A stretch of 64,000 bases of DNA from Escherichia phage vB-EcoP-XT32: the sequence record OR757435. The stretch is one strand, 5' to 3'. The notes below the pieces were generated by a model, which saw nothing but the letters and a program-made list of their open reading frames with translations, did not search any database and was not told the origin of the DNA. The position numbers and the translations under genes were made by a program. How positions within the stretch are numbered: the stretch's first letter is position 1; each line of letters starts with the position of its first letter. Below, one piece after another: positions 2,132 through 63,928 of the stretch.

Positions 2132-4375
2132 ATGGCTAAGCAAAAATATAGTGAAGAGGTGTTGGACGAGTTACGTGTTGACCTTCAACGTCGTTTTAAT
2201 TACGCTCAAGGTTACGTTGACATGGCTGTTAAGGGCTATGCTCGTGAAGCTTGGGAATATTTCTATGGTAACTTACCTGCACCAGTAACTGCTGGCAGCT
2301 CTAGTTGGGTAGATCGTACTGTTTGGGAATCCGTTAACGGTACATTGCAAGATATTATTAACGTATTCTGTTCTGGTGATGAAGCAGTTACTTTTGTAGC
2401 TGATAACCAACAGGACTCTGATGCTGCTGATGTAGCAACTAAACTAGTTAACCAAATTCTTCTGCGTGACAATCCGGGATACAATATTATCTCCTCTGCT
2501 GCACAAGAATGTCTAGTTACTCGTAACTCTTTTATCAAGTATTATTGGGATGAGCACACTTCTACTCAAACTGAAGAAGCTGAAGGTGTACCACCGGAAG
2601 CGTTGGCTGCATATGTTCAGGGATTAGAAGCTGGTGGACTCAAGAATCTGGAAATCTTCACTGAAGAAAATGAAGACGGTACAGTAGATGTTAAAGTTAC
2701 TTATGAACAAACTGTTAAACGTGTGAAAGTTGAATATGTTCCTTCAGAGCAAATCTTTGTTGATGAACATGCTACCTCTTTTGCAGATGCACAATATTTC
2801 TGTCATCGTGTACGTCGTTCTAAAGAAGATCTGGTTGCTATGGGCTTCCCTAAAGATGAGATTGAAGCATTTAATGACTGGACAGACACGATGGATACCA
2901 CTCAATCTACAGTTGCTTGGTCTCGTACTGACTGGCGTCAGGACATTGATGCTGACATTGGCACAGATACTGAAGATATCGCTACTATGGTTTGGGTTTA
3001 TGAGCACTACATCCGTACTGGTGTTCTAGATAAGAATAAAGAATCTAAACTCTATCAGGTTATTCAAGCTGGTGAGCATATCCTTCACACTGAAGAAGTA
3101 ACTCACATTCCGTTTGTAACCTTCTGTCCGTATCCGATTCCGGGTTCCTTCTATGGTCAGTCAGTCTATGACATTACGAAAGATATTCAGGATTTACGTA
3201 CCGCGTTAGTTCGTGGTTATATTGATAACGTCAACAATGCTAACTATGGTCGATACAAAGCTCTTGTTGGTGCATACGATCGTCGCTCTCTGCTTGATAA
3301 CCGTCCCGGTGGAGTGGTTGAAATGGAACGTCAGGACGCTATCGACCTGTTCCCATACCATAACCTACCTCAAGGTATTGATGGCCTCCTAGGTATGTCT
3401 GAGGAGCTTAAAGAGACACGTACTGGTGTAACTAAACTTGGCATGGGTATCAACCCTGATGTGTTTAAGAACGATAACGCTTATGCAACCGTAGGCTTGA
3501 TGATGAATGCTGCACAGAACCGTCTCCGTATGGTATGTCGTAACATTGCTCACAATGGTATGGTTGAATTGATGCGTGGTATTTATAGCCTTATCAGAGA
3601 AAATGGTGAAGTTCCTATTGAGGTACAAACCCCTCGTGGTATGGTTCAGGTAAATCCGAAACAATTACCAGCTCGTCACAATCTTCAAGTTGTTGTAGCT
3701 ATCTCTCCTAATGAAAAAGCAGAACGTGCACAGAAACTGATTAGCTTGAAGCAGCTGATTGCAGCAGATGCACAGTTAGCACCTCTCTTCGGTTTGGAGC
3801 AAGACCGTTACATGACTGCACAGATCTTTGAGTTGATGGGTATTAAAGACACTCACAAATACCTACTGCCTCTGGAACAGTATCAGCCTCCTGAGCCGTC
3901 TCCGATGGAAATCCTCCAGCTCGAGATGACTAAAGCACAGGTTGAGAACGTACAGGCTTCTTCTCAGAAGATGATTGCTGATGCATTCGACCAGCGTGAA
4001 CGTACTACATTCGAACAGCAGAAAGCTGCGGATGAATTAAGTCTGCGTCAGGAAGAGTTGCAGTTCAAGCAAGAAAATGCAGCAGATGCTATGACTCTGG
4101 AAAACCGTAAAGAAGATAACAATGCAACTCTGGAACAAGCTAAGCACAAGTTAGCTCTTATGCAACAGCAGGTCCGTCAGTATGAGTCTGTACTGAAAGA
4201 ATTGCAGATGGTTATGGAACATCAGGTTGACCAAGAGAAGATTGTTCAGCAATCTCGTGTTCAGGATAAAACTTTGGAACTCCAGAAGAAAGAAGCAAAT
4301 GTAACTAAGAAAGAGCAACAAGCTTCTCTCAAAGATTCACGGATTCCAGGCAAACGTCTTGGAAGTAAAAAGTAA
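2132..4375 (+). CDS. portal protein
   Basis: 747 aa directly after large terminase; long Q/E/K-rich helical C-terminal tail typical of large podophage portals; gene order terminase-portal-scaffold-capsid. Confidence 0.8.
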   Translation: MAKQKYSEEVLDELRVDLQRRFNYAQGYVDMAVKGYAREAWEYFYGNLPAPVTAGSSSWVDRTVWESVNGTLQDIINVFCSGDEAVTFVADNQQDSDAADVATKLVNQILLRDNPGYNIISSAAQECLVTRNSFIKYYWDEHTSTQTEEAEGVPPEALAAYVQGLEAGGLKNLEIFTEENEDGTVDVKVTYEQTVKRVKVEYVPSEQIFVDEHATSFADAQYFCHRVRRSKEDLVAMGFPKDEIEAFNDWTDTMDTTQSTVAWSRTDWRQDIDADIGTDTEDIATMVWVYEHYIRTGVLDKNKESKLYQVIQAGEHILHTEEVTHIPFVTFCPYPIPGSFYGQSVYDITKDIQDLRTALVRGYIDNVNNANYGRYKALVGAYDRRSLLDNRPGGVVEMERQDAIDLFPYHNLPQGIDGLLGMSEELKETRTGVTKLGMGINPDVFKNDNAYATVGLMMNAAQNRLRMVCRNIAHNGMVELMRGIYSLIRENGEVPIEVQTPRGMVQVNPKQLPARHNLQVVVAISPNEKAERAQKLISLKQLIAADAQLAPLFGLEQDRYMTAQIFELMGIKDTHKYLLPLEQYQPPEPSPMEILQLEMTKAQVENVQASSQKMIADAFDQRERTTFEQQKAADELSLRQEELQFKQENAADAMTLENRKEDNNATLEQAKHKLALMQQQVRQYESVLKELQMVMEHQVDQEKIVQQSRVQDKTLELQKKEANVTKKEQQASLKDSRIPGKRLGSKK

Positions 4376-4384
4376 GGACGTCGA

Positions 4385-4621
4385 ATGAACATTAGGCATC
4401 AATTCAATAAAGAGCACGCCGCCGCTTTGGCGGCTCTCAATCTTAACGGCAGTCTTGACGCAGCATTAGAGGCATTGAAAGAAAGACTCATGACAGAGAT
4501 AGTTCAAACTGAACCTCATGAGAATAAGAAACGCGAAGATTGTTATCAAAAGTATAAAATGGTGGGTAGCTTAAAAGAGGTCATAAAAGCTGCTATCAAT
4601 AGTGCAGGAGATGTTTCATAA
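4385..4621 (+). CDS. hypothetical small protein between portal and scaffold
   Basis: 78-aa ORF filling the portal-scaffold gap; stop overlaps next start (ATAATG). Confidence 0.4.
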   Translation: MNIRHQFNKEHAAALAALNLNGSLDAALEALKERLMTEIVQTEPHENKKREDCYQKYKMVGSLKEVIKAAINSAGDVS

Positions 4622-5706
4622 TGCCACAAGATAATTATATTGACCCGAACGATTTTAAATCTTTCCTCCAACTGGATGACCTGAAAGGTTCTTTTAAAGA
4701 AGAACTTGGTCGATTAGAATCTGAACAAGAACCAGAAGTGGACATTGACGATGAGTTCCCGGAAGATACCGGTGACAATTTCGACTTTGATACCGACCTT
4801 CTCGGTGAAAGCGATGAGCTTAAGTTCGAAGATGAAGATGGTTGGGAAGATCATGATGAGGAAGGCGAAGTCGAAGAAGATGGGGATGACTCTGATGAAG
4901 GTGATGAAAACACTGAAGCAGAAGAGGAAGACTCAAGCGATGCAGGGTATGAAGATGATTCTGCTGACGGTGATGGTGAGGTCTTTGATGTAGACTACGA
5001 AACCGTTATCACCCTTCCTGATGGACGTGAGATGACTATTGAAGAACTCTCCAATGGCTATCTTACTGGTGCTGACATGACCGAACGAGAATCAACTCTT
5101 CAGCGTCACATGGAAGCATTTGAGGAACGTGTAGTAGGTTTGAAGGATGTATTAGAATTAGCGTCTTTAGAAGCAGACCGAGTAATTGAAGATTACAACG
5201 GATTTGATTGGGACAAGCTTGCAGTAGAAGATCCTCAAGCATATGTTGAAAACAAACGTTTCCTAGAGAAGTACACAGCTCGTCGTAACCAGCTTGAACA
5301 GGCTCAGATGCGTGTTAAGCAGGAAGCAGCAGCTAAAGAACAGGAAGCTTTCCAAGCCAAAAGTATTGAGTGCGTTAATATTCTGAAACGTGAGATTCCA
5401 AATTGGGATGAAAACTTATATCAAAACTTAATGCAATATGCAATTGACTTAGGTGCTACTGAAGAAGAAGTATTGAAGGAAAACCGTCCGTCTATTTTCC
5501 TAGCTCTCCATAAAGCATACCAATTTGATAAAGGTAAGCAGCAGGTGATGGCTAAGATTAAACGTCCCGGTGCTCCACGCAAGGTTGTGAAGTCTGATGC
5601 TGCAAAGTCTCGTACTTCCAATAAGCCAGACAACGCTAAGGTTGCCAAGGCATTCGCAGAGGGTCGCGTTAGTCACGAAGACGCATTCAAATTCCTCGTA
5701 GATTAA
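4621..5706 (+). CDS. scaffolding protein (putative)
   Basis: 361 aa, highly acidic D/E-rich N-terminal third, helical/coiled-coil rest; located between portal and major capsid. Confidence 0.6.
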   Translation: MPQDNYIDPNDFKSFLQLDDLKGSFKEELGRLESEQEPEVDIDDEFPEDTGDNFDFDTDLLGESDELKFEDEDGWEDHDEEGEVEEDGDDSDEGDENTEAEEEDSSDAGYEDDSADGDGEVFDVDYETVITLPDGREMTIEELSNGYLTGADMTERESTLQRHMEAFEERVVGLKDVLELASLEADRVIEDYNGFDWDKLAVEDPQAYVENKRFLEKYTARRNQLEQAQMRVKQEAAAKEQEAFQAKSIECVNILKREIPNWDENLYQNLMQYAIDLGATEEEVLKENRPSIFLALHKAYQFDKGKQQVMAKIKRPGAPRKVVKSDAAKSRTSNKPDNAKVAKAFAEGRVSHEDAFKFLVD

Positions 5707-5747: not shown

Positions 5748-6809
5748 ATGGCTAATCCAACTTTATTTGTATCGTATGACCAGAATGGTAAAAAACTTTC
5801 TTTTGCTAACTGGATTTCTGTTCTGTCCCCTCAGGATACCCCGTTCGTATCCATGACCGGTAAAGAGTCTATCAACCAGACTATCTTTAGCTGGCAGACC
5901 GATGCACTGGCAAGCGTTGATGGTAATAACGCACACGTCGAAGGCTCTCGTGCTGAAGACGGCGAAATGAAACCGACTGTTATCAAGTCTAACGTTACTC
6001 AGATTCTGCGTAAGGTTGTTCGTGTTTCTGACACTGCTAACACCACCGCTAACTACGGTCGTGGTCGCGAACTGATGTACCAGCTGGAGAAGAAAGGTAA
6101 AGAGATCAAGCGTGACCTCGAGAAAATCCTTCTGTCTGGTCAGGCTCGTACCGACGTTCTGGCTGACCAATACCTGACTAACTCTGCCGCTGACCCAGAT
6201 CAGATTGGCAAGAACGACACCCATGCAGCTCGTAAGACTGGTGCATTCCAGTTCCTGTGTGCTCACGGTGGTCTGGCTGGCGGCGTTGTTGACAAGACCA
6301 AGAATGGTCCTGCTGACCCGGATACTGGTGCAATCACTGTTAAAGTTGCACAGAACGCTTCTAACCCGGCTACTAACATCGGCTTTGATGAAGCAGATAT
6401 CTTTGATATGACTCTGCAACTGTACACCGCTGGTTCTGAAGCAGATATCATCATGATTAACCCGGCTCATGCTAAGATCTTCGCTGGTCTGCAAGAAAAT
6501 ACTCAGGGTTCACGTAAGCGTATCTTTGAAAACACCAAGCAGTTCATTTACGAAGTTAACAGCATCACTGACCCGCTGGGCCAGAGCTACAAAATCATCG
6601 TTAACCGTTGGATGCCTACCGATGCAGTTTACTTCTTCCGTAGCGCTGACTGGACTCAGATGGTTCTGCGTGCTCCGAAACGTACTGAACTGGCTAAAGA
6701 TGGTTCTTACGAAAAATGGATGATTGAGATGGAAGTTGGTCTGCGTCACCGCAACCCGTATGCTTCCGGTGTTCTGTTCACTGCTGCGGGAAAGGCAGTG
6801 GCGGCGTAA
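5748..6809 (+). CDS. major capsid protein
   Basis: 353 aa; strong RBS (AGGAG) 10 nt upstream; follows scaffold; codon usage biased to common codons; size typical of HK97-fold podophage capsid proteins. Confidence 0.8.
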   Translation: MANPTLFVSYDQNGKKLSFANWISVLSPQDTPFVSMTGKESINQTIFSWQTDALASVDGNNAHVEGSRAEDGEMKPTVIKSNVTQILRKVVRVSDTANTTANYGRGRELMYQLEKKGKEIKRDLEKILLSGQARTDVLADQYLTNSAADPDQIGKNDTHAARKTGAFQFLCAHGGLAGGVVDKTKNGPADPDTGAITVKVAQNASNPATNIGFDEADIFDMTLQLYTAGSEADIIMINPAHAKIFAGLQENTQGSRKRIFENTKQFIYEVNSITDPLGQSYKIIVNRWMPTDAVYFFRSADWTQMVLRAPKRTELAKDGSYEKWMIEMEVGLRHRNPYASGVLFTAAGKAVAA

Positions 6810-7336
6810 CAGTAGATACCATAACTGTTAGTCCTTCGTCGGTTGCAAGCCTTCCGACGGGGGCTACTCAGCAGTTTACAGCTACAGCACAAATCAGTGA
6901 TAGCTCCACATCAACAACTGGATTTGTTTGGTCCGTTGAGGGTGGTGGGGCTATTTCTGTTTCTGGACTGTATACTGCACCGAGTGCGTCGCAAGAATCC
7001 CCGATTACAGTGAAAGCTACTAAAGGTGGTAAATCCGGTACATCTACGATCTCAGCTATTGCTGACCCTGAACCTACCCTTGTTAGCCGAGGGCCGATTT
7101 CAGGGAAGGTGGGTGGATCAACAACCGCATTCTCTACTATGTTTACAGCAACAAACTCTACCGGAAGTGACTATACTTTTGAGGTAACTCCTCCGGAAGC
7201 GGGCACTGTTAGTGCAGCTGGTCTTTTGACTCTTGCTGATACTGCTACGGGTGCAGTCTCTGTTACAGCTACACACGAGACTAAACCTCTTGTAACAGCC
7301 ACTTGTGAATTCACAGGTGTAACACCTGCTGCTTAA
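5748..7336 (+). CDS. major capsid protein, C-terminally extended isoform via putative -1 frameshift at 6788-6794 (Ig-like/Big_2-type extension, about 180 aa)
   Basis: -1 frame downstream of slippery site encodes Ig-like repeats (ITVSPSSVASLPTGATQQFTATAQ..., ITVKATKGGKSGTSTISAI...); no RBS or ATG for an independent gene (track ORF 7010 starts at GTG without SD). Confidence 0.55.
6788..6794 (+). promoter_or_regulatory. putative -1 programmed ribosomal frameshift slippery heptamer G_GGA_AAG
   Basis: X_XXY_YYZ heptamer in capsid zero frame, 13 nt before capsid stop; -1 frame is open from 6728 through 7336. Confidence 0.55.
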
Positions 7337-7343
7337 AATTAGA

Positions 7344-7367
7344 CCCTGCCTTCGGGCGGGGTTTTTT
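7344..7367 (+). terminator. rho-independent terminator after capsid/Ig-extension
   Basis: Hairpin CCCTGCC-TTCG-GGCGGGG followed by TTTTTT. Confidence 0.7.
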
Positions 7368-7395
7368 CGTTTTAAGACCTATACAAGCTAGTGTG

Positions 7396-7405
7396 TAATG
7401 TATAT
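7396..7405 (+). promoter_or_regulatory. TAATGTATAT motif (candidate phage-sigma-dependent promoter element)
   Basis: Exact 10-mer, one of three exact plus-strand copies in the window, all intergenic; 32 nt upstream of ATG at 7438, just after a terminator. Confidence 0.45.
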
Positions 7406-7437
7406 TCTTTGTCTACATATAACAAGGAGGACAACCT

Positions 7438-7950
7438 ATGGCAATGCCAGATTTCAGAGGAGCTTTTACATATAACCCAAATACAGGGCATCTTTTCTGG
7501 TCTATGAGTAACATATTCAATAAACAGAAAGGGCAACGTGCTGGATGTATTAATAATAAGGGATATCGTGTACTAACCTTCAAGAAGAAATCGTACCTAG
7601 AGCACAGGGTCATAGCTGAACTCTTTCTTCCTAAAGTAGAAGGGAAGGATTATGTCAACCATAAGAATGGAATAAAAGATGATAACAGGATTGAGAATCT
7701 AGAGTGGTGTACTCAACAAGAAAACTGTGTACATGCTTATGAAACAAAACTCTCAACACCAAGAAATCTTGAGGATAACCCTAATTCCAAACTTACTAAA
7801 GAACAAGTTCTTTTCTGTTTAGAGAACTATAAACCGAGGGACAGACAGTTCGGAGCTAGAGCTTTAGCTAGGAAGTTTGGAGTCTCTTCAAGTACAATAA
7901 GCCTGATAATCAATGGCACAAACTGGAAGGAGGTATCCTATGTTGCCTGA
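7438..7950 (+). CDS. HNH homing endonuclease
   Basis: 170 aa; N-terminal NUMOD4-like FRGAFTYNPNTGHLFW and HNH core HKNGIKDDNRIENLEW; inserted between capsid and tail genes. Confidence 0.8.
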   Translation: MAMPDFRGAFTYNPNTGHLFWSMSNIFNKQKGQRAGCINNKGYRVLTFKKKSYLEHRVIAELFLPKVEGKDYVNHKNGIKDDNRIENLEWCTQQENCVHAYETKLSTPRNLEDNPNSKLTKEQVLFCLENYKPRDRQFGARALARKFGVSSSTISLIINGTNWKEVSYVA

Positions 7951-8689
7951 CGTTCAATACCCCATCAATACCTATGGGTGGCTAAAGAAGGCCGTGGCCC
8001 TCTGGGCAGATAGGGACGATGACGAATTTGTTAATCAAATTCCAAACTTTATTAACTTTGCAGAGAAAGAGATTTATCGTAATTTACGTATCCCTCCTCT
8101 GGAAAAAGAAGTGTATTTAGATATTAAAGATGGAGTAGCTTACATTCCTCCTGATTACTTAGAAGCTCAATGGATGATGAGAGCCAAAGATGGTACAATC
8201 TTCCAAGTAACATCTCCTGAAGAGATTAGCTATCGTAGACAGCATGGAACAATTAACCCATCTCATTGGAACAATCAACCTGTTAACTTTGCTCGTTTCG
8301 GTAGTCGTTTCATTTTCTATCCTAGCATCGAAGCAGACACTCCGTATTACCCTGATGATGGAAGTCCTTTGATTCCAGCAGAAAACTCAGTAATTCTTAG
8401 TTATTATGCAGACCCACCGGAATTCCATGAAGACACAGACACTAGTGCTATTCTTACTATCGCACCAGAACTTCTTCTGTACTTTACTCTACGTCATGCT
8501 TGCTTGTTTGTTCAAGATGACAACGGAGTTCAGAAATGGTCAGCATTAGGAAAAGCTATCCTTGATGAAATGGTAGAGCAGAATAAGAAACAAGAGTACT
8601 CAGGTTCACCTATCGCAATTCCGAATAACATGACTCGGCTTCAGAGCAGCTTGCCTGATATTTATGGTATTCGTACTTCTCGTGTATAA
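7940..8689 (+). CDS. virion structural protein (putative head-tail adaptor or tail tube component)
   Basis: Start chosen at ATG 7940 with GGAGG 6 nt upstream (track ORF begins at 7913 inside the HNH gene); function from position only. Confidence 0.45.
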   Translation: MLPDVQYPINTYGWLKKAVALWADRDDDEFVNQIPNFINFAEKEIYRNLRIPPLEKEVYLDIKDGVAYIPPDYLEAQWMMRAKDGTIFQVTSPEEISYRRQHGTINPSHWNNQPVNFARFGSRFIFYPSIEADTPYYPDDGSPLIPAENSVILSYYADPPEFHEDTDTSAILTIAPELLLYFTLRHACLFVQDDNGVQKWSALGKAILDEMVEQNKKQEYSGSPIAIPNNMTRLQSSLPDIYGIRTSRV

Positions 8690-41381: not shown

Positions 41382-41596
41382 TTAACAACCTTAAATTTGA
41401 ATGTTGTTGGGTGATAATAATGCAACCTGTTAATGGTGTGCTTTGTTTCAAGATATATCCTACAAGAGTGACACATAACATGAGACAGACCAGTTACAGG
41501 ATTAGGTTTGAAGTTGATGATAGTCTTCTCTTTCTTACAGAAGCTACACACTTTATGTGTCATTAACTCTCCAAAGTTTTCTTCAGAGCTGCCCAC
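41378..41596 (-). CDS. zinc-finger-like small protein
   Basis: 72 aa with CSFCKK ... CHSCR. Confidence 0.4.
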   Translation of the reverse strand: MGSSEENFGELMTHKVCSFCKKEKTIINFKPNPVTGLSHVMCHSCRIYLETKHTINRLHYYHPTTFKFKVVK

Positions 41597-42210
41597 GAGA
41601 TTGGGTAGAGTTTAGCCATCTCTTCATCCAGAGATTGAGCAAACACTCGAACTTCATACTGAGCATGGGAGGATAGTCGCTGACGACACAACTCAAACCA
41701 GCCATACAAAGAACCAGTCCAGTACCAAGTAGTTACCATACCTTGAGGTAAAACAAATCTAGCCTGTTCAGGAGCTACGAACTTAATTAATTCATCATAA
41801 CTAGCAAGAGATGCCTCATATGCAGAGTTAAACAAAGCTAAAGCCTTTACCTCTTCATCTCCTTCAAGGAGTGTTCCAGAACCCGAATGTAGATCATCGG
41901 GGCGAGAGAAGATTTCTTTAGGTATAAAAATATCCACTGCTCCATCTTTATATCTACGACTCATCTCATTCCAAGAAAAACCAACTTGATGCTTCTGTAG
42001 CTGACGTGCAATTGCTATAGGGGCTTCGCATCTGAAGCTAGCTTGTGGGTGGCGAAAAGGGCTTACGTGTCGCTCTCGAGCTAGGAAGTTAATAAGCCGA
42101 GTATCACTTTCTTTCAACTCCTCTCTTTCTACCCCCATAGTCACACGAGCAGCATTGACCACAGTAAGGTCGGAACCGAAGTTATCAATTAGTGAAGCTT
42201 TGATTGTCAT
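41563..42210 (-). CDS. thyX: flavin-dependent thymidylate synthase ThyX
   Basis: 215 aa; RHVSPFRHPQASF and ...SWNEMSRRY match the ThyX signature. Confidence 0.8.
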   Translation of the reverse strand: MTIKASLIDNFGSDLTVVNAARVTMGVEREELKESDTRLINFLARERHVSPFRHPQASFRCEAPIAIARQLQKHQVGFSWNEMSRRYKDGAVDIFIPKEIFSRPDDLHSGSGTLLEGDEEVKALALFNSAYEASLASYDELIKFVAPEQARFVLPQGMVTTWYWTGSLYGWFELCRQRLSSHAQYEVRVFAQSLDEEMAKLYPISWAALKKTLES

Positions 42211-42676
42211 TTATATAAGTCTCCTTGACTTTATTATATGCTTTAGAGGCTTCTTCTATAGTTGAGAAGAGTCCTATGTGCTTAGATTTGAATACCGCCC
42301 GGTAAGCAATAGAGCCACTTTTCCTTCTATGAAGAGTTACTCCAATCACTCCGGTTGATAAGTTGTTACTTTGGGCTATTTTGTTGAGTCCATTCCCTGA
42401 CCTAGTAGTCCCTCTAAGGTTCTCTCTTTTGTTATTTAGTCTGTTGCGGTCTACATGGTCCACTTCTTCAGGAAGCAATCCAGTGTCCCACCAGTAAGCA
42501 AGTCGATGAGCATAATACCTAACACCTTTATAAACGATTCTCAAATACCCGTTGGTATTTATAGAACCAGCTATAGACCCTTTGCGCCCTTTTCCATAAG
42601 TTTTAACCCATCGGAAATCTCCAGTCAAAGGGTCATAATCAAGAGCTTCTTTTATTGATGGATCAATATCATTCAT
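42185..42676 (-). CDS. HNH homing endonuclease with AP2-type domain
   Basis: 163 aa; HNH core EEVDHVDRNRLNNKRENLR then AP2-like GVTLHRRKSGSIAYRAVFKSKHIGLFSTIEEA. Confidence 0.75.
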   Translation of the reverse strand: MNDIDPSIKEALDYDPLTGDFRWVKTYGKGRKGSIAGSINTNGYLRIVYKGVRYYAHRLAYWWDTGLLPEEVDHVDRNRLNNKRENLRGTTRSGNGLNKIAQSNNLSTGVIGVTLHRRKSGSIAYRAVFKSKHIGLFSTIEEASKAYNKVKETYINDNQSFTN

Positions 42677-42691
42677 CCGTGAATTTCCTTA

Positions 42692-42901
42692 TTAATATTC
42701 TTTTACATAACAAACCACTAAGGTTCCCTTCTCTGACAATGTTGATTTATGTAAGCTTACTTTACTATAAATCTTTGGAGACATCTTAAGAGCCTTCTTA
42801 AAACGGCGAGCATCTTTACGAGTAGCAAAGTGCTCTGTAACAGGTATAGCCGGGTCTTGGTAGAGGTAATATACCACCGTCCAATATTTTTTCATAATCA
42901 A
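42692..42901 (-). CDS. small protein, member of a 4-copy paralogous family
   Basis: MIMKKYWTVVYY ... FATRKDARRFKK ... shares MKK.W.V ... F.TR..AR..K pattern with 44857-45371 ORFs. Confidence 0.5.
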   Translation of the reverse strand: MIMKKYWTVVYYLYQDPAIPVTEHFATRKDARRFKKALKMSPKIYSKVSLHKSTLSEKGTLVVCYVKEY

Positions 42902-43170
42902 ACACCTAGGGCAGTAGTTAAGAATGCTTTCAGGTTTGCTTCGGTCTGCATACCAGAGAGACTATAGTGTGCACCACTATTACGGTCAGGTACAACGAAA
43001 GCAGGGATGCTTCTTACACCATACTTAACAGCTTGTTCACGACCATCACCTTCAAGGATGTTAATCTCTTCTACTTCTACATCGAACTCCTTAACAACCT
43101 TCTCAAAGGTAGGAGCCATTGCTTTACATGGAGCACACTGATCGCTATAAAACTTAATCACTTTAGACAT
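42898..43170 (-). CDS. thioredoxin
   Basis: Start at ATG 43170 (AAGGAA upstream); MSKVIKFYSDQCAPCK active-site C..C. Confidence 0.7.
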   Translation of the reverse strand: MSKVIKFYSDQCAPCKAMAPTFEKVVKEFDVEVEEINILEGDGREQAVKYGVRSIPAFVVPDRNSGAHYSLSGMQTEANLKAFLTTALGV

Positions 43171-43171
43171 T

Positions 43172-43348
43172 CTATTCCTTGTTAATAAACAGGTTGATAT
43201 GACGTTGGGTAGCAGGAACAACAATAAAAGATTTATACTGACCTTTTGCTAAGTCATGAGCAATCTTCTTTGTTTGACCAAGACCCATCACACAGCCACT
43301 AACGATAATGGCATGTGCTTGTAATTCTTCAGGTAGGTTTAGTTTCAC
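43172..43348 (-). CDS. hypothetical small protein upstream of thioredoxin
   Basis: 58-aa GTG-initiated ORF (VKLNLPEELQAHAIIVSGCVMGLGQ...) with AAAGAG upstream. Confidence 0.3.
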   Translation of the reverse strand: MKLNLPEELQAHAIIVSGCVMGLGQTKKIAHDLAKGQYKSFIVVPATQRHINLFINKE

Positions 43349-43360
43349 TCTTTGGTTTCC

Positions 43361-43546
43361 TTATAGCATACAAAGAATAATAACAAGAGGTAGTGTTATA
43401 GCAAAATGTACCAGAACAACACTGCCTAGCTTGATAGCTTTAACATCCTCTTCTGCTGGGTTTTCTTTAATTGCTAAATTTCGAGCTTTATATATAACAG
43501 TACCAACTATTAACGACCACACGGCCCACACAATCAGTGAAATCAT
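43361..43546 (-). CDS. small 2-TM membrane protein (paralog 1)
   Basis: 61 aa; two hydrophobic helices (MISLIVWAVWSLIVGTVIY and VLVHFAITLPLVIILCML). Confidence 0.5.
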   Translation of the reverse strand: MISLIVWAVWSLIVGTVIYKARNLAIKENPAEEDVKAIKLGSVVLVHFAITLPLVIILCML

Positions 43547-43555
43547 ATCAAACCC

Positions 43556-43735
43556 TTATGCAGTCAGGAGGTGAAGCAGGAATGGGATAACAACAGCTAC
43601 GACAACCATGATGGTTGATGCTGTTTGAATCTCACCTTTCTTGTCAGGAGTTTCTTCAATAAGCTTGCCAGAAGCCCAATAGATACCACCACCAATAAAG
43701 ACAGCCCAAATACCCCATACGATTGCTGATAACAT
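43556..43735 (-). CDS. small 2-TM membrane protein (paralog 2)
   Basis: 59-aa ORF (MLSAIVWGIWAVFIGGGIYWASGK...VVVAVVIPFLLHLLTA) with AAGGA upstream; N-terminus resembles 43361-43546 product; preferred over overlapping track ORF 43597-43851. Confidence 0.45.
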   Translation of the reverse strand: MLSAIVWGIWAVFIGGGIYWASGKLIEETPDKKGEIQTASTIMVVVAVVIPFLLHLLTA

Positions 43736-43796
43736 ATATCTATATCCTTATAAATAAGTTCGCCCCACCTCGGGTTAGGAGACAGGGCGGAGGTTT

Positions 43797-44360
43797 TTAG
43801 TAAGACACATCGCCACTTGAGTGGGACATGTTGCTCTTGACGAAGTAGCAATACTTGCCAAGACCTTCATTAATTTCTTGAAGCATACTCTGATCAACTG
43901 GATAAGTGGCTAAATCACCATCAAACTCATCCATCTTCTCAATAATACACATCAAGGTCATGCACATATCAGAGAGCATACCGTCCATATCTAGGTCAGC
44001 ATTACCCTCTGAGAACCAAGCATGGGAGAGATAATTGGCTGCTGTGGCGTCCACTTTAACACAGTGGTAACGCATACGTTCAGCAATACGATCTCCTACT
44101 TGTCGTGCGTAATCTTCCAGCTCATCAAACATACCATGAACACCCTGAAATCCTGCACCAGAGACGTTCCAATGGTAGTTTTTAGCTTTGATATGCAAGA
44201 GTTCTATGTTAGCTTGTAAGCAGCTCAGGATGTGTTCTAGGCTGTTTCCACTAATCATACCCTGCATTGTTTCAAGGCGAGAGATTGAAAGCTCTGATCG
44301 GTCTAACATATTATATTCGGCACGACCAATCTCAGGTAAATCAAAAACATTCTTATGCAT
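43797..44360 (-). CDS. Dps/ferritin-like protein
   Basis: 187 aa; LHIKAKNYHWNVSGAGFQGVHGMFDELEDYARQVGDRIAERM matches Dps ferroxidase-site pattern (HWN ... H ... D ... E); ATG abuts the assembly gap. Confidence 0.65.
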   Translation of the reverse strand: MHKNVFDLPEIGRAEYNMLDRSELSISRLETMQGMISGNSLEHILSCLQANIELLHIKAKNYHWNVSGAGFQGVHGMFDELEDYARQVGDRIAERMRYHCVKVDATAANYLSHAWFSEGNADLDMDGMLSDMCMTLMCIIEKMDEFDGDLATYPVDQSMLQEINEGLGKYCYFVKSNMSHSSGDVSY

Positions 44361-44856
44361 TNNNNNNNNNNNNNNNNNNNNNNNNNNNNNNNNNNNNNNN
44401 NNNNNNNNNNNNNNNNNNNNNNNNNNNNNNNNNNNNNNNNNNNNNNNNNNNNNNNNNNNNNNNNNNNNNNNNNNNNNNNNNNNNNNNNNNNNNNNNNNNN
44501 NNNNNNNNNNNNNNNNNNNNNNNNNNNNNNNNNNNNNNNNNNNNNNNNNNNNNNNNNNNNNNNNNNNNNNNNNNNNNNNNNNNNNNNNNNNNNNNNNNNN
44601 NNNNNNNNNNNNNNNNNNNNNNNNNNNNNNNNNNNNNNNNNNNNNNNNNNNNNNNNNNNNNNNNNNNNNNNNNNNNNNNNNNNNNNNNNNNNNNNNNNNN
44701 NNNNNNNNNNNNNNNNNNNNNNNNNNNNNNNNNNNNNNNNNNNNNNNNNNNNNNNNNNNNNNNNNNNNNNNNNNNNNNNNNNNNNNNNNNNNNNNNNNNN
44801 NNNNNNNNNNNNNNNNNNNNNNNNNNNNNNNNNNNNNNNNNNNNNNNNNNNNNNNN
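44361..44856. other. assembly gap (496 N)
   Basis: Run of N characters; sequence unknown. Confidence 0.99.
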
Positions 44857-44965
44857 GTTTCTTAGCAATACGAGCCTCTTTGCGAGTGTCAAACAATTTG
44901 ATGCTATCTTTTCTCGTGTGTTGATCAAGATCCCAAACAACACGAATCGCCCACATCTTTTTCAT
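44857..44965 (-). CDS. small protein of the paralogous family, 5' portion only (3' end lost in gap)
   Basis: MKKMWAIRVVWDLDQHTRKDSIKLFDTRKEARIAKK then runs into N. Confidence 0.4.
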
Positions 44966-45174
44966 TAGTAATGTACCTTTCCGCTGATATAAACACGACC
45001 AGAAGAATACTCCTTGGCCTTATGGATACTGATACTATTGACCACGTCACCAGTAAGCATAGTCTTTTTAAAATCTCGAGCCTGTTGACGAGTAGGAAGT
45101 GCAGTCATAGTCATACCACCTGATGCCCACTTAATCTTTGCTAACCAAAACTGTCTCATAGTGATTGGTCTCAT
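44965..45174 (-). CDS. small protein, paralogous family member
   Basis: 69 aa; ...LPTRQQARDFKKTML ... shares family pattern. Confidence 0.45.
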   Translation of the reverse strand: MRPITMRQFWLAKIKWASGGMTMTALPTRQQARDFKKTMLTGDVVNSISIHKAKEYSSGRVYISGKVHY

Positions 45175-45371
45175 TAATAATAAACCTTGCTGTTGGCAAA
45201 AAGAGCACCTTCGTTATTCACAATAGCTTTTCCTATTGTAACCTTATTGAGTCTAAAAGTAGACTTGTATTGGTTTTTGACCCTACGGGCGTGTTCTCGA
45301 GTGTTAATAAAATCTACAGCTACCAAGTCTCCAGTCGTATCATCATGTACACGAACAATCCACTTTTTCAT
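45174..45371 (-). CDS. small protein, paralogous family member
   Basis: 65 aa; MKKWIVRVHDD ... FINTREHARRVK ... Confidence 0.5.
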   Translation of the reverse strand: MKKWIVRVHDDTTGDLVAVDFINTREHARRVKNQYKSTFRLNKVTIGKAIVNNEGALFANSKVYY

Positions 45372-45574: not shown

Positions 45575-46108
45575 TTACACACCTTTAGATGCAACTACAC
45601 CTTCAGAGTTATTATAACGCCCCTTCACTGCATAGGAATGTTCCCCTGCATGAGAGTGCTCAAACATCACCATCTGACCAACACGCATACCAGCACGAAC
45701 TCGTAAACTGTGGTGCTTGGTTACGTTATGGAATTCAAATGTCAGCTTACTGCTATTAAATCCTGCATCTGCCCAACCGGCGTGAAGGTGGTTCAAACCA
45801 CAACGAGCCATAGACGAACGCAGAACAAACAGACTTGAGATGTTATCTGGAAGATTAAACTCCTCCATGGAGTGAGCCAAGAAGAACTGACCCGGAGTGA
45901 TAACCAAACCCTCTTCAGGAATTTTTACTTCCTTCCACTGAAGATTTTCTTTCGCATCAATATCAACGATGCCATCAGCCTGTTCTTCAACAAGGATAGT
46001 ATCACCAATACGGATATCCACACTAGCAGCGTTAACATACTTATGCTCCGCATCCAGATAGCCATTATCAATTACATCGTGTAGTTCAACACTTCCTAGT
46101 AAACTCAT
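45575..46108 (-). CDS. dCTP deaminase (dUTPase superfamily)
   Basis: 177 aa; SVDIRIGDT, ITPGQFFLAHSMEEFNLP, LRSSMARCGLNHLHAGWADAGF, RAGMRVGQMVMF parallel E. coli Dcd. Confidence 0.7.
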   Translation of the reverse strand: MSLLGSVELHDVIDNGYLDAEHKYVNAASVDIRIGDTILVEEQADGIVDIDAKENLQWKEVKIPEEGLVITPGQFFLAHSMEEFNLPDNISSLFVLRSSMARCGLNHLHAGWADAGFNSSKLTFEFHNVTKHHSLRVRAGMRVGQMVMFEHSHAGEHSYAVKGRYNNSEGVVASKGV

Positions 46109-63847: not shown

Positions 63848-63928
63848 TGGCGTCCCCACTAGGACTCGAACCTAAAATGGATTTNGATTTTTAGAAGAAA
63901 ACTGTTATATCCTTTTAACTATAGGGAC
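63848..63928 (-). tRNA. tRNA, probably tRNA-Arg (anticodon UCU), with encoded CCA
   Basis: 7-bp acceptor stem GTCCCTA/TGGGGAC, D-arm GTTA-AAAGGATA-TAAC, anticodon loop CTTCTAA, T-arm TTAGG-TTCGAGT-CCTAG, 3' GCCA; unusually long variable region containing one N. Confidence 0.6.

Follow-up and report, generated by a model that had tools for sequence, protein, structure and literature searches.

The gene under study lies in a 64,000-nucleotide stretch of Escherichia phage vB-EcoP-XT32 (OR757435), hereafter the window, whose translation gives a minus-strand open reading frame of 187 amino acids at 43797–44360, with the ATG at 44360 and the stop at 43797–43799. An earlier note on this DNA had placed a 187-aa product at these positions, with no mention of strand; the reading frame was found there, and the ferroxidase-site pattern quoted in that note, NYHWNVSGAGFQGVHGMFDELEDYARQVGDRIAERM, corresponds to residues 61–96 of its translation. 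The gene, its parts and the adjoining masked stretch are as follows:

43797–44360, minus strand: gene for a mini-ferritin of the Dps family (187 codons and the stop), orthologous to phiEco32 gp67 and SU10 CDS67.
43833–44228, minus strand: Dps core domain, residues 45–176, delimited from AlphaFold (AF2) secondary structure, Foldseek (target-normalised TM 0.75–0.91 to Dps chains) and the profile match.
44229–44360, minus strand: 44-residue lineage-specific N-terminal extension, delimited from alignments, charge count, pLDDT and identity to SU7.
44079–44174, minus strand: codons of the inter-subunit ferroxidase centre, taken directly from the sequence, namely H63 (44172–44174), W64 (44169–44171), H75 (44136–44138), D79 (44124–44126), D90 (44091–44093) and E94 (44079–44081).
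44362–44856, minus strand: masked stretch of 495 N, located as an N run in the window.

The N run starts 2 nt upstream of the Dps ATG and hides the context of the start codon in the window. The start is nevertheless supported by more than 90 orthologs, all of those examined sharing this ATG and the opening residues MH(K/N)N, and by phiEco32 and SU7, in which the stop of the upstream gene overlaps the Dps ATG (junction ATGCATAA). Over this stretch the window is 100% identical to Kuravirus phage XT18. A dN/dS of 0.077 (about 0.08) at a dS of 0.2 points to strong purifying selection on the Dps gene.

Judged from profile and sequence comparisons, similarity of the product to the Dps/ferritin family is far above chance. 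Pfam PF00210 (Ferritin) was matched with an E-value of 3.5e-7 and 30.7 bits against a cut-off of 24.5, the alignment covering profile positions 14–68 only, and PHROG 3636 (phage 'DNA binding protein') was matched with an E-value of 4e-55, residues 35–180 aligning to positions 2–149 of the 149 in the profile. A phmmer search of PDB sequences (E up to 10) returned 61 matches, of which almost all were Dps chains (lowest E-value 2e-9), while the family profile searched against the PDB had Dlp-2 as its best match (6.6e-15 over profile positions 39–171), with all 50 of the 50 matches listed being of Dps type. The score of 35 bits against the NCBIfam Dps equivalog NF006975 is far below its cut-off of 114, which marks the phage protein as a divergent subfamily. 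The AF2 monomer model (pLDDT 80.5) predicts helices A (41–65), B (72–98), BC (107–112), C (125–150) and D (154–176), that is, a four-helix bundle in which the long B–C loop holds a short BC helix and which lacks a fifth C-terminal E helix, and the best 50 Foldseek matches are all Dps or Dps-like chains (target-normalised TM 0.73–0.91). The Dps/ferritin-like identity claimed in the earlier note is borne out by these profile and fold comparisons and at residue level (see below); it had named a missing ferritin-like profile hit or a predicted structure lacking the four-helix bundle as grounds against it, and both the PF00210 match above the curated cut-off and the bundle in the AF2 model were found. 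A further hit, P0032 (1,156 aa, 20 matched stretches), was set aside as a tandem-repeat artefact in which the His ligands are absent.

The same comparisons bear on the product name 'integrase', under which the gene appears in the records of XT73, 172-1, IME267, ES17 and other phages. Nothing speaks for an integrase other than this product name in some GenBank records; Pfam, NCBIfam and PHROGs yield ferritin/Dps matches only and no tyrosine- or serine-recombinase domain, the fold is the Dps four-helix bundle, and these phiEco32-like phages are virulent. The probability that the product is an integrase is negligible, and the label is wrong for this Dps protein. The error has practical weight, as some of these prolate podophages are phage-therapy candidates against APEC, ETEC and UPEC, and a false 'integrase' flag could wrongly bar them from therapeutic use.

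The ferroxidase centre is intact, as the earlier note had supposed, with all five ligands and the neighbouring Trp conserved at residue level. Across 18 aligned sequences (from Kuravirus, Grimontviridae, Lahexavirus, metagenomic relatives and E. coli Dps, with pairwise identity down to 19%), H63, W64, H75, D90 and E94 are invariant and D79 is present in 17; the D79 equivalent is lost in the Synechococcus S-SRM01 copy. The ligand spacing, H-x11-H-x3-D-x10-D-x3-E, is that of E. coli Dps H51/H63/D67/D78/E82, and W64 aligns with E. coli W52. Since the ferroxidase site spans the dimer interface and both of its halves are conserved, the oligomer is probably kept. The E. coli DDD stretch (142–144), which may be part of the acidic iron-entry pore, aligns with Y153-P154-V155 of the phage protein, so the route of iron entry may differ from that of E. 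coli Dps; the C–D region of the phage protein carries an acidic cluster (E141, D144, E145, D147, D149 and D156).

Outside the core, the 44-residue N-terminal extension is net acidic (4 K/R against 7 D/E). A helix is predicted in it with low confidence at residues 18–37, the pLDDT is 44–62 across residues 1–40, and the extension carries a conserved motif, S-x-x-R-L-[ED]-x-M; its identity to SU7 is 61%, compared with 91% for the core. The C-terminal tail of 11 residues contains no K/R, and helix C is rich in Met/Cys (7.5% Met, motif GMLxDMCMTL). With a pI of 4.73, the Kuravirus Dps has a net charge of about −15 (−14.8) per subunit, compared with −4 for E. coli Dps, and a Lys/Arg-rich DNA-contacting tail of the E. 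coli Dps type was found at neither the N- nor the C-terminus.

These properties bear on a possible role chiefly in binding or condensing DNA, with the protein covering or compacting the DNA of phage or host like stationary-phase E. coli Dps. Most GenBank entries carry this label, which has been transferred through many records, the gene is located among replication genes, and the homologs of Grimontviridae and related phages have short Lys/Arg-rich N-tails (e.g. MLGARPKRP and MKQILTARPGSKRKAG) that resemble the E. coli Dps tail. However, the acidic extension, the C-tail devoid of basic residues and the overall charge all argue against it for the Kuravirus form, DNA binding alone would not call for such strictly conserved ferroxidase ligands, and Dps proteins without basic tails (Listeria Dps, Dlp-1/2) are not known to bind DNA. 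We therefore consider a mainly DNA-binding role quite unlikely: the 'DNA-binding' label is unsupported for the Kuravirus form, which on the evidence of its acidic tails and charge probably does not bind DNA, while Grimontviridae relatives with short basic N-tails may do so. The earlier note's suggestion of recruitment as a DNA-binding component is accordingly disfavoured.

The Dps gene sits in a middle-gene block of replication and nucleotide-metabolism functions, in which the following features are relevant here:

41563–42210, minus strand: ThyX, flavin-dependent thymidylate synthase (from annotation), a conserved downstream neighbour.
42898–43170, minus strand: thioredoxin gene (Pfam PF00085, 2.5e-13; annotated in XT18 and phiEco32).
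43761–43789, minus strand: terminator-like hairpin with an 11 bp stem and a weak T tract, found by scan and fold, 8 nt after the Dps stop.
45575–46108, minus strand: dCTP deaminase gene (from annotation; PF22769 DCD in metagenomic relatives).

The thioredoxin gene is a conserved neighbour in the same middle-gene block and lies beside Dps in relatives too, the dCTP deaminase gene is a conserved upstream neighbour of the pair formed by gp68 and Dps, and PF02511 (Thy1) adjoins Dps in metagenomic L011 and L012. In tblastn searches against phages, Dps and dCTP deaminase gave nearly identical organism counts. Synteny would place three elements in the masked stretch at 44362–44856, namely the gp68 homolog, the P68 middle promoter and the 3' part of a small gp69-like gene: the starts of the gp69-like gene and of Dps are 605 nt apart in the window, compared with 604 nt in phiEco32. 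Where the window has its 495-nt mask, XT18 has 982 nt; the extra 487 nt are an HNH homing endonuclease insertion, which XT18 and XT73 carry between gp68 and Dps and which is absent from the window, and at this point the window thus departs from XT18.

The gp68 homolog (phrog_10984) is the gene whose stop overlaps the Dps ATG in phiEco32 and SU7. In phiEco32, AAATGTAT (AATGTA motif) precedes the gp68 ATG by about 40 nt, and P68 has been described as a gp36/gp79-dependent middle promoter, gp79 activating P68 and inhibiting the sigma70 and sigmaS holoenzymes (PMC12276001). A scan of the window for TAATGTAT gave 5 sites against 2.7 expected, none of them near the Dps gene, the intergenic region of interest being masked. 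From this arrangement, Dps would be translationally coupled to its conserved partner gp68 behind the gp36-dependent middle promoter P68. The hairpin at 43761–43789 (−17.1 kcal/mol, z = −1.9), whose stem and loop are the same in the close relatives phiEco32 and XT73, is a possible end of the gp68-Dps transcription unit, although its T tract is poor.

The association with gp68 extends beyond Kuravirus. The gp68 homolog overlaps or abuts the Dps start in Kuravirus, Suseptimavirus, Privateervirus, Crifsvirus, Libingvirus and Lahexavirus and in two metagenomic contigs, which would be expected if gp67 and gp68 formed a phage-specific module of two proteins in the service of nucleotide metabolism and replication. 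Such a module could store or donate iron, or scavenge oxygen, on behalf of enzymes that depend on iron or radicals, such as the anaerobic RNR NrdD/NrdG, or it could be a shell re-used for a non-iron purpose. Further points in its favour are that Dps directly adjoins nrdD in GAP52, BUCT695 and Privateer (a short nrdD fragment in the last), that nrdD or nrdG lies within about 2–2.5 kb of Dps in LAh_6, L011 and L012, and that gp68 and CDS67 were co-detected in the SU10 proteome. Against this, the Kuravirus window keeps Dps though no NrdD is found among its large open reading frames, gp68 and Dps lie apart in phage 7-11, and the two genes may be neighbours simply as members of one middle-gene operon. 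The gp68 protein itself offers few clues: it gave no match in Pfam or PDB sequences, neither gp68 nor Dps matched a PADLOC defence-system model at E ≤ 0.01, no conserved Cys was seen among the gp68 homologs compared, and its AF2 model is of low confidence (pLDDT 62), Foldseek returning only a generic Tudor/KOW/SH3-like small beta-barrel with non-significant E-values.

We consider the two-protein module unlikely, and the same holds for its evolutionary form, namely a coupled gp68-Dps module kept by all C3 podophages since their common ancestor and doing a phage-specific job. If true, it would exceed generic protection against Fenton chemistry and would explain both the strict co-inheritance and the detection of Dps in Privateer virions; the acidic dodecamer with its extended tails, acting together with the small beta-barrel protein gp68, might then be a nanocage associated with particles or with replication factories, or an iron/redox chaperone of nucleotide-synthesis enzymes. 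Protection of NrdD as the reason for retention of Dps in this phage was considered separately and is weakened by the lack of NrdD among the window's large open reading frames, although in relatives nrdD adjoins Dps or lies nearby.

Translation of the gene is supported by the published SU10 proteome, in which CDS67 was detected with 35.8% coverage and 6 peptides. This detection in a phage preparation, together with the finding by mass spectrometry of the Privateer Dps (QIN94861) in CsCl-purified virions (PMC7881722), is also what favours a virion-associated protein, packaged in or bound to the prolate head, where it would protect or organise the genome or be delivered to the next host; the gene is, moreover, found in all C3 prolate podophages and confined to them. 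The SU10 sample, however, was PEG-precipitated only, its authors warn of early and middle proteins, and DNA polymerase, thioredoxin, PhoH and a sigma factor are present in it as well; as a PEG precipitate with many non-structural proteins, this 'virion' proteome was rejected as evidence for a structural role. Dps is a middle gene of the replication block, outside the late structural block, a Dps sphere of about 9 nm across is too wide to traverse the portal channel, and iron-loaded dodecamers could simply co-purify with particles. The earlier note's idea of a structural component is left with one CsCl proteome of a distant relative, and the SU10 cryo-EM/MS study, which assigns gp20–24 as ejection proteins, does not mention Dps/gp67 (PMC9509320). 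A virion-associated role is accordingly regarded as very unlikely.

The reading we prefer, with a probability of roughly 0.6, is that the gene product is a mini-ferritin of the Dps family, catalytically competent and orthologous to phiEco32 gp67, with an iron- and peroxide-detoxifying role; among the three functions offered in the earlier note, iron sequestration and oxidative protection fit best, DNA binding is disfavoured and the structural role draws on a single proteome. Most likely, the protein acts as a middle-phase iron and peroxide detoxifier while phage DNA is being copied. Under the mechanism proposed, gp67 would be made together with gp68 from the gp36/gp79-dependent P68 and would assemble into a 12-subunit hollow shell that oxidises Fe2+ with H2O2 or O2 at the ferroxidase sites and stores Fe3+ inside, and the lowered free iron and peroxide would suppress Fenton damage to replicating phage DNA. 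Host dps depends on sigma70 and sigmaS; at the P68 stage gp79 would have shut off transcription by both, and the host could then not induce its own dps. In another system, when YerA41 infects Yersinia lytically, the host's dps, catalase and peroxiredoxin are strongly induced (PMC7354516). Our literature search found no biochemical or genetic test of any phage Dps, either purified or knocked out. The plain detoxifier model leaves the conserved gp68, the acidic N-terminal extension and the Met/Cys-rich helix C unexplained, and it does not predict detection in CsCl-purified Privateer virions.

The presence of Dps in this phage is not a new observation, as the gene is already annotated in phiEco32 as gp67, 'member of the Dps family'; the phiEco32 genome paper reportedly dates from 2008. 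The gene has also been discussed for SU10 and for Privateer (PMC7881722), and the identification in the earlier note is right but ordinary, its proposed role being already assumed in the literature. Two tblastn searches of 50,697 phage records found Dps-like genes in about 138 and 131 records, respectively, some of them (from Streptomyces, Cronobacter, Aeromonas and Salmonella phages) probably being in both counts. The description of phage-encoded Dps as uncommon holds in so far as it is rare among these records, but it recurs in several lineages that are not related to one another, and within its own group, the prolate (C3) podophages, this Dps is a core gene. A whole lineage of virulent prolate podophages keeps Dps under strong selection and tied to its partner gp68.

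Comparison with the closest known genes shows essentially no difference. The phiEco32 gp67 (phi32_67, YP_001671812; 'DNA binding protein, member of the Dps family') has the same 187 aa and 97.3% amino acid identity to the window gene, SU10 CDS67 (187 aa) has 97.9%, and both have the same placement, between the gp68 homolog and the genes for a small membrane protein and thioredoxin. The homologs in Grimontviridae and Lahexavirus (7-11, Privateer, GAP52, BUCT695 and LAh_6) belong to the same phrog_3636 clade, with 29–41% identity and the same ligands, and share the gp68 partner and the neighbourhood of dCTP deaminase, thioredoxin and ThyX; they differ in being 146–156 aa long, with short basic N-tails in place of the long acidic extension, and in GAP52, BUCT695, Privateer and LAh_6 Dps adjoins or lies near anaerobic RNR genes, which the Kuravirus window lacks.

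Other phage-borne Dps genes, in Lactobacillus plantarum myophages, 'Gratiaviridae' gut phages, Streptomyces phages and Synechococcus S-SRM01, are at or below roughly 30% identity to the window protein where measured, or were found only with E. coli Dps as query, and those of the Lactobacillus, gut, Streptomyces and Synechococcus phages are apparently independent acquisitions. The Lactobacillus-phage (PMC6669764) and gut-phage (PMC8008677) proteins have likewise been proposed to give oxidative or iron protection during infection.

Among solved structures, M. smegmatis Dps2 (2z90/4m35), B. anthracis Dlp-2 (1jig), B. subtilis MrgA (2chp) and S. aureus Dps (2d5k) superpose on the phage model with TMt 0.8–0.9 and rmsd 1.2–2.8 Å and have the same ferroxidase ligand pattern and the same bundle with a BC helix, but only 22–27% identity to the phage protein, which differs from them in its 44-aa acidic N-terminal extension, Met/Cys-rich helix C and 11-residue C-tail. 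Recent capture of the host gene was considered and rejected, identity to E. coli Dps being 19% and a tblastn search of phages with E. coli Dps finding no Kuravirus. The ligands of E. coli Dps (1dps/1f30; reference checked against the PDB) still align one-to-one with those of the phage protein, but its N-tail is Lys-rich (K5, K8 and K10) where that of the phage protein is acidic, and its charge is −4 where that of the phage protein is about −15. Expression differs as well, host dps being driven by sigma70/OxyR and by sigmaS, whereas a middle promoter of the gp36 type precedes the phage gene.

The Dps-type open reading frame of 187 aa claimed in the earlier note is present on the minus strand, and the ferroxidase-site motif quoted there corresponds to residues 61–96 of its product.

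43797-44360, minus strand, Dps open reading frame, ATG start, 187 codons

As a run of 495 N (44362-44856) begins 2 bases upstream of the ATG, the start is not confirmable from the window alone, and it was confirmed by comparison with orthologues. A lone N base also occurs at 63885. Over the 1.36 kb surrounding the gene, the window matches Escherichia phages vB-EcoP-XT18 and XT73 at 100% identity and dozens of further phiEco32-like podophages (Kuravirus, Gordonclarkvirinae) at 95–97%. The protein shares 97.9% identity with SU10 CDS67 and 97.3% with phiEco32 phi32_67, entered in RefSeq as "DNA binding protein; member of the Dps family", and its identification as Dps is already known from public annotation and at least two papers. 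Elsewhere it is recorded as "integrase", "ferric iron binding protein" or "hypothetical". The integrase label, carried by many Kuravirus records (OR757436 (XT73), KP308307 (172-1), NC_070983 (IME267), MN508615 (ES17) and others), was rejected, as a recombinase domain is absent; it could falsely imply a temperate lifestyle during phage-therapy screening.

Pfam PF00210 matched the protein with 30.7 bits (gathering score 24.5), PHROG 3636 matched it end to end (4e-55) and phmmer against the PDB returned almost only Dps chains, the best being M. smegmatis Dps2 (2e-9), while a 16-sequence family profile reached 6.6e-15 against B. anthracis Dlp-2 over positions 39–171. The AlphaFold model (pLDDT 80.5, pTM 0.72) contains helices at residues 41–65, 72–98, 107–112 (short), 125–150 and 154–176, a predicted order that is the Dps A-B-BC-C-D topology, with an extra helix of lower confidence at residues 18–37. 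All top 50 Foldseek matches in the PDB were Dps or Dps-like subunits (target-normalised TM 0.73–0.91), with rmsd of 1.2–2.8 Å for the best-fitting chains. Profiles (Pfam, PHROG, PDB), predicted fold and ferroxidase residues thus bear out the Dps/ferritin-like claim, including the two checks named with it, a Pfam ferritin-like profile search and a four-helix bundle in the predicted structure. The score against the NCBIfam Dps equivalogs was far from their cut-off (35 vs 114 bits); the protein represents a divergent phage subfamily and is no copy of the host dps gene.

Conservation of the ferroxidase site was assessed in 18 sequences, from Kuravirus, distant metagenomic relatives, Salmonella 7-11, Proteus Privateer, Cronobacter GAP52, Aeromonas BUCT695 and LAh_6, Synechococcus S-SRM01 and E. 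coli Dps (reference sequence checked as 1f30/1dps over 1–167). H63, W64, H75, D90 and E94 are invariant, and D79 is kept in 17/18, being lost in cyanophage S-SRM01 only. Each of these six residues has its counterpart, at unchanged spacing, in E. coli Dps (H51, W52, H63, D67, D78 and E82 in the family numbering). The halves of the site come from two subunits, and both are conserved at pairwise identities down to 19–30%, which argues for retention of both catalytic function and oligomer.

Tblastn with the Dps protein recovered 138 of 50,697 phage records, ~97 of them Kuravirus or Suseptimavirus (81–100% identity) and the remainder 7-11-like Salmonella, Proteus, Cronobacter and Aeromonas prolate podophages (29–45%), a few Streptomyces phages and one cyanophage. 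Organism counts for dCTP deaminase and Dps are near-equal (Escherichia 93 against 92, Aeromonas 11/11, Proteus 8/8, Salmonella 7/7, Cronobacter 6/6, Shigella 3/3), making Dps effectively a core gene of the prolate podophage group, in agreement with the SU10 paper, where CDS67 is among only eight CDSs common to all five sequenced C3 (prolate) phages (PMC4281155). With E. coli Dps as query, 131 more phage records were found (Streptomyces 95, Lactobacillus 16, Clostridium 6), a set that probably overlaps the first, with some records counted twice. The description of such genes as uncommon therefore holds for phages at large (about 0.5% of records), yet they are recurrent and, in this group, core; Dps genes have also been noted in Lactobacillus phages (PMC6669764) and "Gratiaviridae" (PMC8008677). 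Among 1.84 billion representative proteins, 7 clusters scored below 1e-30 and 3,351 below 1e-3, and the family is a small clade of phage proteins that merges gradually into Dps at large. One 1,156-aa match of that search (P0032, 20 matched stretches) was discarded as an artefact: it consists of ~57-aa units in tandem, has no His ligands, resembles the Dps motif region by chance and is not a Dps. Strong purifying selection on the gene is evident from dN/dS against phiEco32 (0.077 at unsaturated dS 0.20); in the comparison with SU7, identity is 91% for the Dps core and 61% for the N-extension.

The gene lies within a middle-gene block for replication and nucleotide metabolism, and a similar module occurs in relatives (order rearranged in 7-11) and in two uncultivated contigs (L011, L012).

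45575-46108, minus strand, dCTP deaminase, first in coding-strand order
between dCTP deaminase and masked gp68, minus strand, small open reading frames
directly before Dps, minus strand, gp68 homologue, masked
after Dps, minus strand, two small paralogous membrane proteins, phrog_9296
42898-43170, minus strand, thioredoxin, after the phrog_9296 pair
between thioredoxin and ThyX, minus strand, HNH endonuclease
41563-42210, minus strand, ThyX, last of the block

The phrog_9296 pair directly downstream of Dps (43361-43546 and 43556-43735, minus strand; E=1e-30 to 1e-34) are tandem hydrophobic proteins of 59–61 aa, of which only one copy is annotated in phiEco32. Minus-strand open reading frames of 65–69 aa flank the region (42692-42901, 44857-44965 (partial), 44965-45174 and 45174-45371); by eye they look paralogous (MKK.W... 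start, TR(K/E/Q)xAR..KK motif), and their counterpart in phiEco32 is the gp69-71 region.

Genes near Dps, in coordinates of each locus:
window: gp68 within 44362-44856 (masked)
phiEco32 (L002): gp68 3679-4008
Privateer (L004): gp68 3139-3423; nrdD/nrdG 3898-4194
GAP52 (L005): gp68 2187-2456; nrdD/nrdG 2957-5089
BUCT695 (L006): gp68 2190-2459; nrdD/nrdG 2959-5052
LAh_6 (L007): gp68 2109-2462; nrdD/nrdG 1-128, 1451-1942
L011: gp68 3243-3590; nrdD/nrdG 6570-8129
L012: gp68 3679-4008; nrdD/nrdG 6661-8522

The anaerobic RNR gene nrdD directly adjoins Dps in GAP52, in BUCT695 and, as a remnant of 99 aa, in Privateer, and nrdD or nrdG lies at most about 2–2.5 kb away in LAh_6, L011 and L012. No NrdD was found among the large open reading frames of the window, so this linkage does not explain retention of Dps there.

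The upstream partner gp68 (phrog_10984, ~90–117 aa) directly precedes Dps in every lineage examined but 7-11, with its stop codon overlapping or adjoining the Dps ATG (ATGCATAA, TAATG, ATGA), which indicates translational coupling in nearly all prolate podophage lineages. The gp68 protein has an invariant motif (HRDxLxR...D.V.W..G...P.N..VI..Q..N..NV), is better conserved than Dps in distant relatives, was modelled with low confidence as a small beta-barrel and gave no match in Pfam, PDB or PADLOC. That the pair forms a dedicated module with a phage-specific role seems improbable. The gp69-like and Dps starts lie 605 nt apart in the window and 604 nt apart in phiEco32, and the mask therefore conceals the gp68 homologue, the spacer between gp69 and gp68 and a portion of the gp69-like gene. 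The masked 495 nt compare with 982 nt in XT18 (L001 5363-6344), and the difference of 487 nt is the size of an HNH homing-endonuclease insertion present in XT18 and XT73 exactly at the gp68/Dps junction, whereas the window phage and phiEco32 are without it. At this locus the window is therefore distinct from XT18, and the junction is a polymorphic mobile-element site within a coupled gene pair. The HNH open reading frame of the block (42185-42676, minus strand), overlapping the thyX start, is at the same position in XT18 (identical over the searched 43000-44361) and not at that position in phiEco32; it is a second mobile-element polymorphism of the same block.

In the phiEco32 gp69-gp68 spacer, AAATGTAT stands ~40 nt before the gp68 ATG and matches the AATGTA element of the phage sigma factor gp36; the SU7 record has a promoter annotated in the same spacer. 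P68, a middle promoter that depends on gp36 and gp79 and has served for in-vitro transcription and for a cryo-EM open complex (PMC12276001), is, judging by its name and this motif, probably the promoter upstream of gp68. 3' of the Dps stop codon, a hairpin with a weak T tract at 43761-43789 (-17 kcal/mol, z = -1.9) may be a terminator. Translation of the SU10 orthologue CDS67 has been demonstrated experimentally (35.8% coverage, 6 peptides; PMC4281155). The sample was a PEG precipitate also holding DNA polymerase, thioredoxin, PhoH, sigma factor and gp68, in which its authors considered early and middle proteins possible (PMC4281155). It therefore lends little to the suggestion that Dps is a structural component of the virion, which is favoured by the presence of Privateer Dps in CsCl-purified virions (PMC7881722), where co-purified dense dodecamers are a simpler explanation. 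The SU10 cryo-EM and MS study assigned gp20-24 as head-internal ejection proteins, Dps being absent from its text (PMC9509320). Incorporation into the virion is judged unlikely.

We consider it somewhat probable (about 0.6) that the protein acts in the middle phase of infection as a dodecameric mini-ferritin, independently of DNA. At the conserved inter-subunit sites, Fe2+ would be oxidised by H2O2 or O2 and the oxidised iron sequestered, leaving less Fenton chemistry while phage DNA replicates. The fold, the ligands, selection, expression and the class of promoter have been shown; the oligomeric state, catalysis and the role in the cell are inferred. No functional test of any phage Dps was found in the literature. 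In E. coli, sigma70 and sigmaS are the two routes of dps induction. Both sigma70- and sigmaS-dependent transcription are shut off by gp79 (PMC12276001), and lytic infection in another system provokes a host dps, catalase and peroxiredoxin response (PMC7354516); together these three points provide a rationale for a phage-encoded Dps.

The alternative that Dps binds DNA, as labelled in GenBank records and proposed in the earlier note, is unsupported for the Kuravirus form, in which the 44-residue N-extension has 4 K/R vs 7 D/E, the C-tail has 0 basic residues and the pI is 4.73. Two N-terminus types were observed, one short, Lys/Arg-rich and E. coli Dps-like (7-11, Privateer, GAP52, BUCT695, LAh_6; Grimontviridae and related) and the other an acidic 30–44-aa extension with an SxxRL(D/E)xM helix (Kuravirus and metagenomic relatives; window 44229-44360). 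The extension motif S-x-x-R-L-[ED]-x-M is conserved, with R28 invariant in one of the alignments. In Grimontviridae homologues the long extension is absent and the N-terminus is a short basic tail (MLGARPKRP..., MARDMIRSRPSLRR..., MKQILTARPGSKRKAG...), so that DNA binding is plausible for them. This dichotomy of acidic and basic tails and the strictly conserved gp68 partner are where residual interest lies. Helix C is unusually Met/Cys-rich (GMLSDMCMTLMC), with 7.5% Met vs 2.4% in E. coli Dps. The net charge is about -15 per subunit for the Kuravirus protein with its acidic extension and -4 for E. coli Dps, whose tail is rich in Lys.
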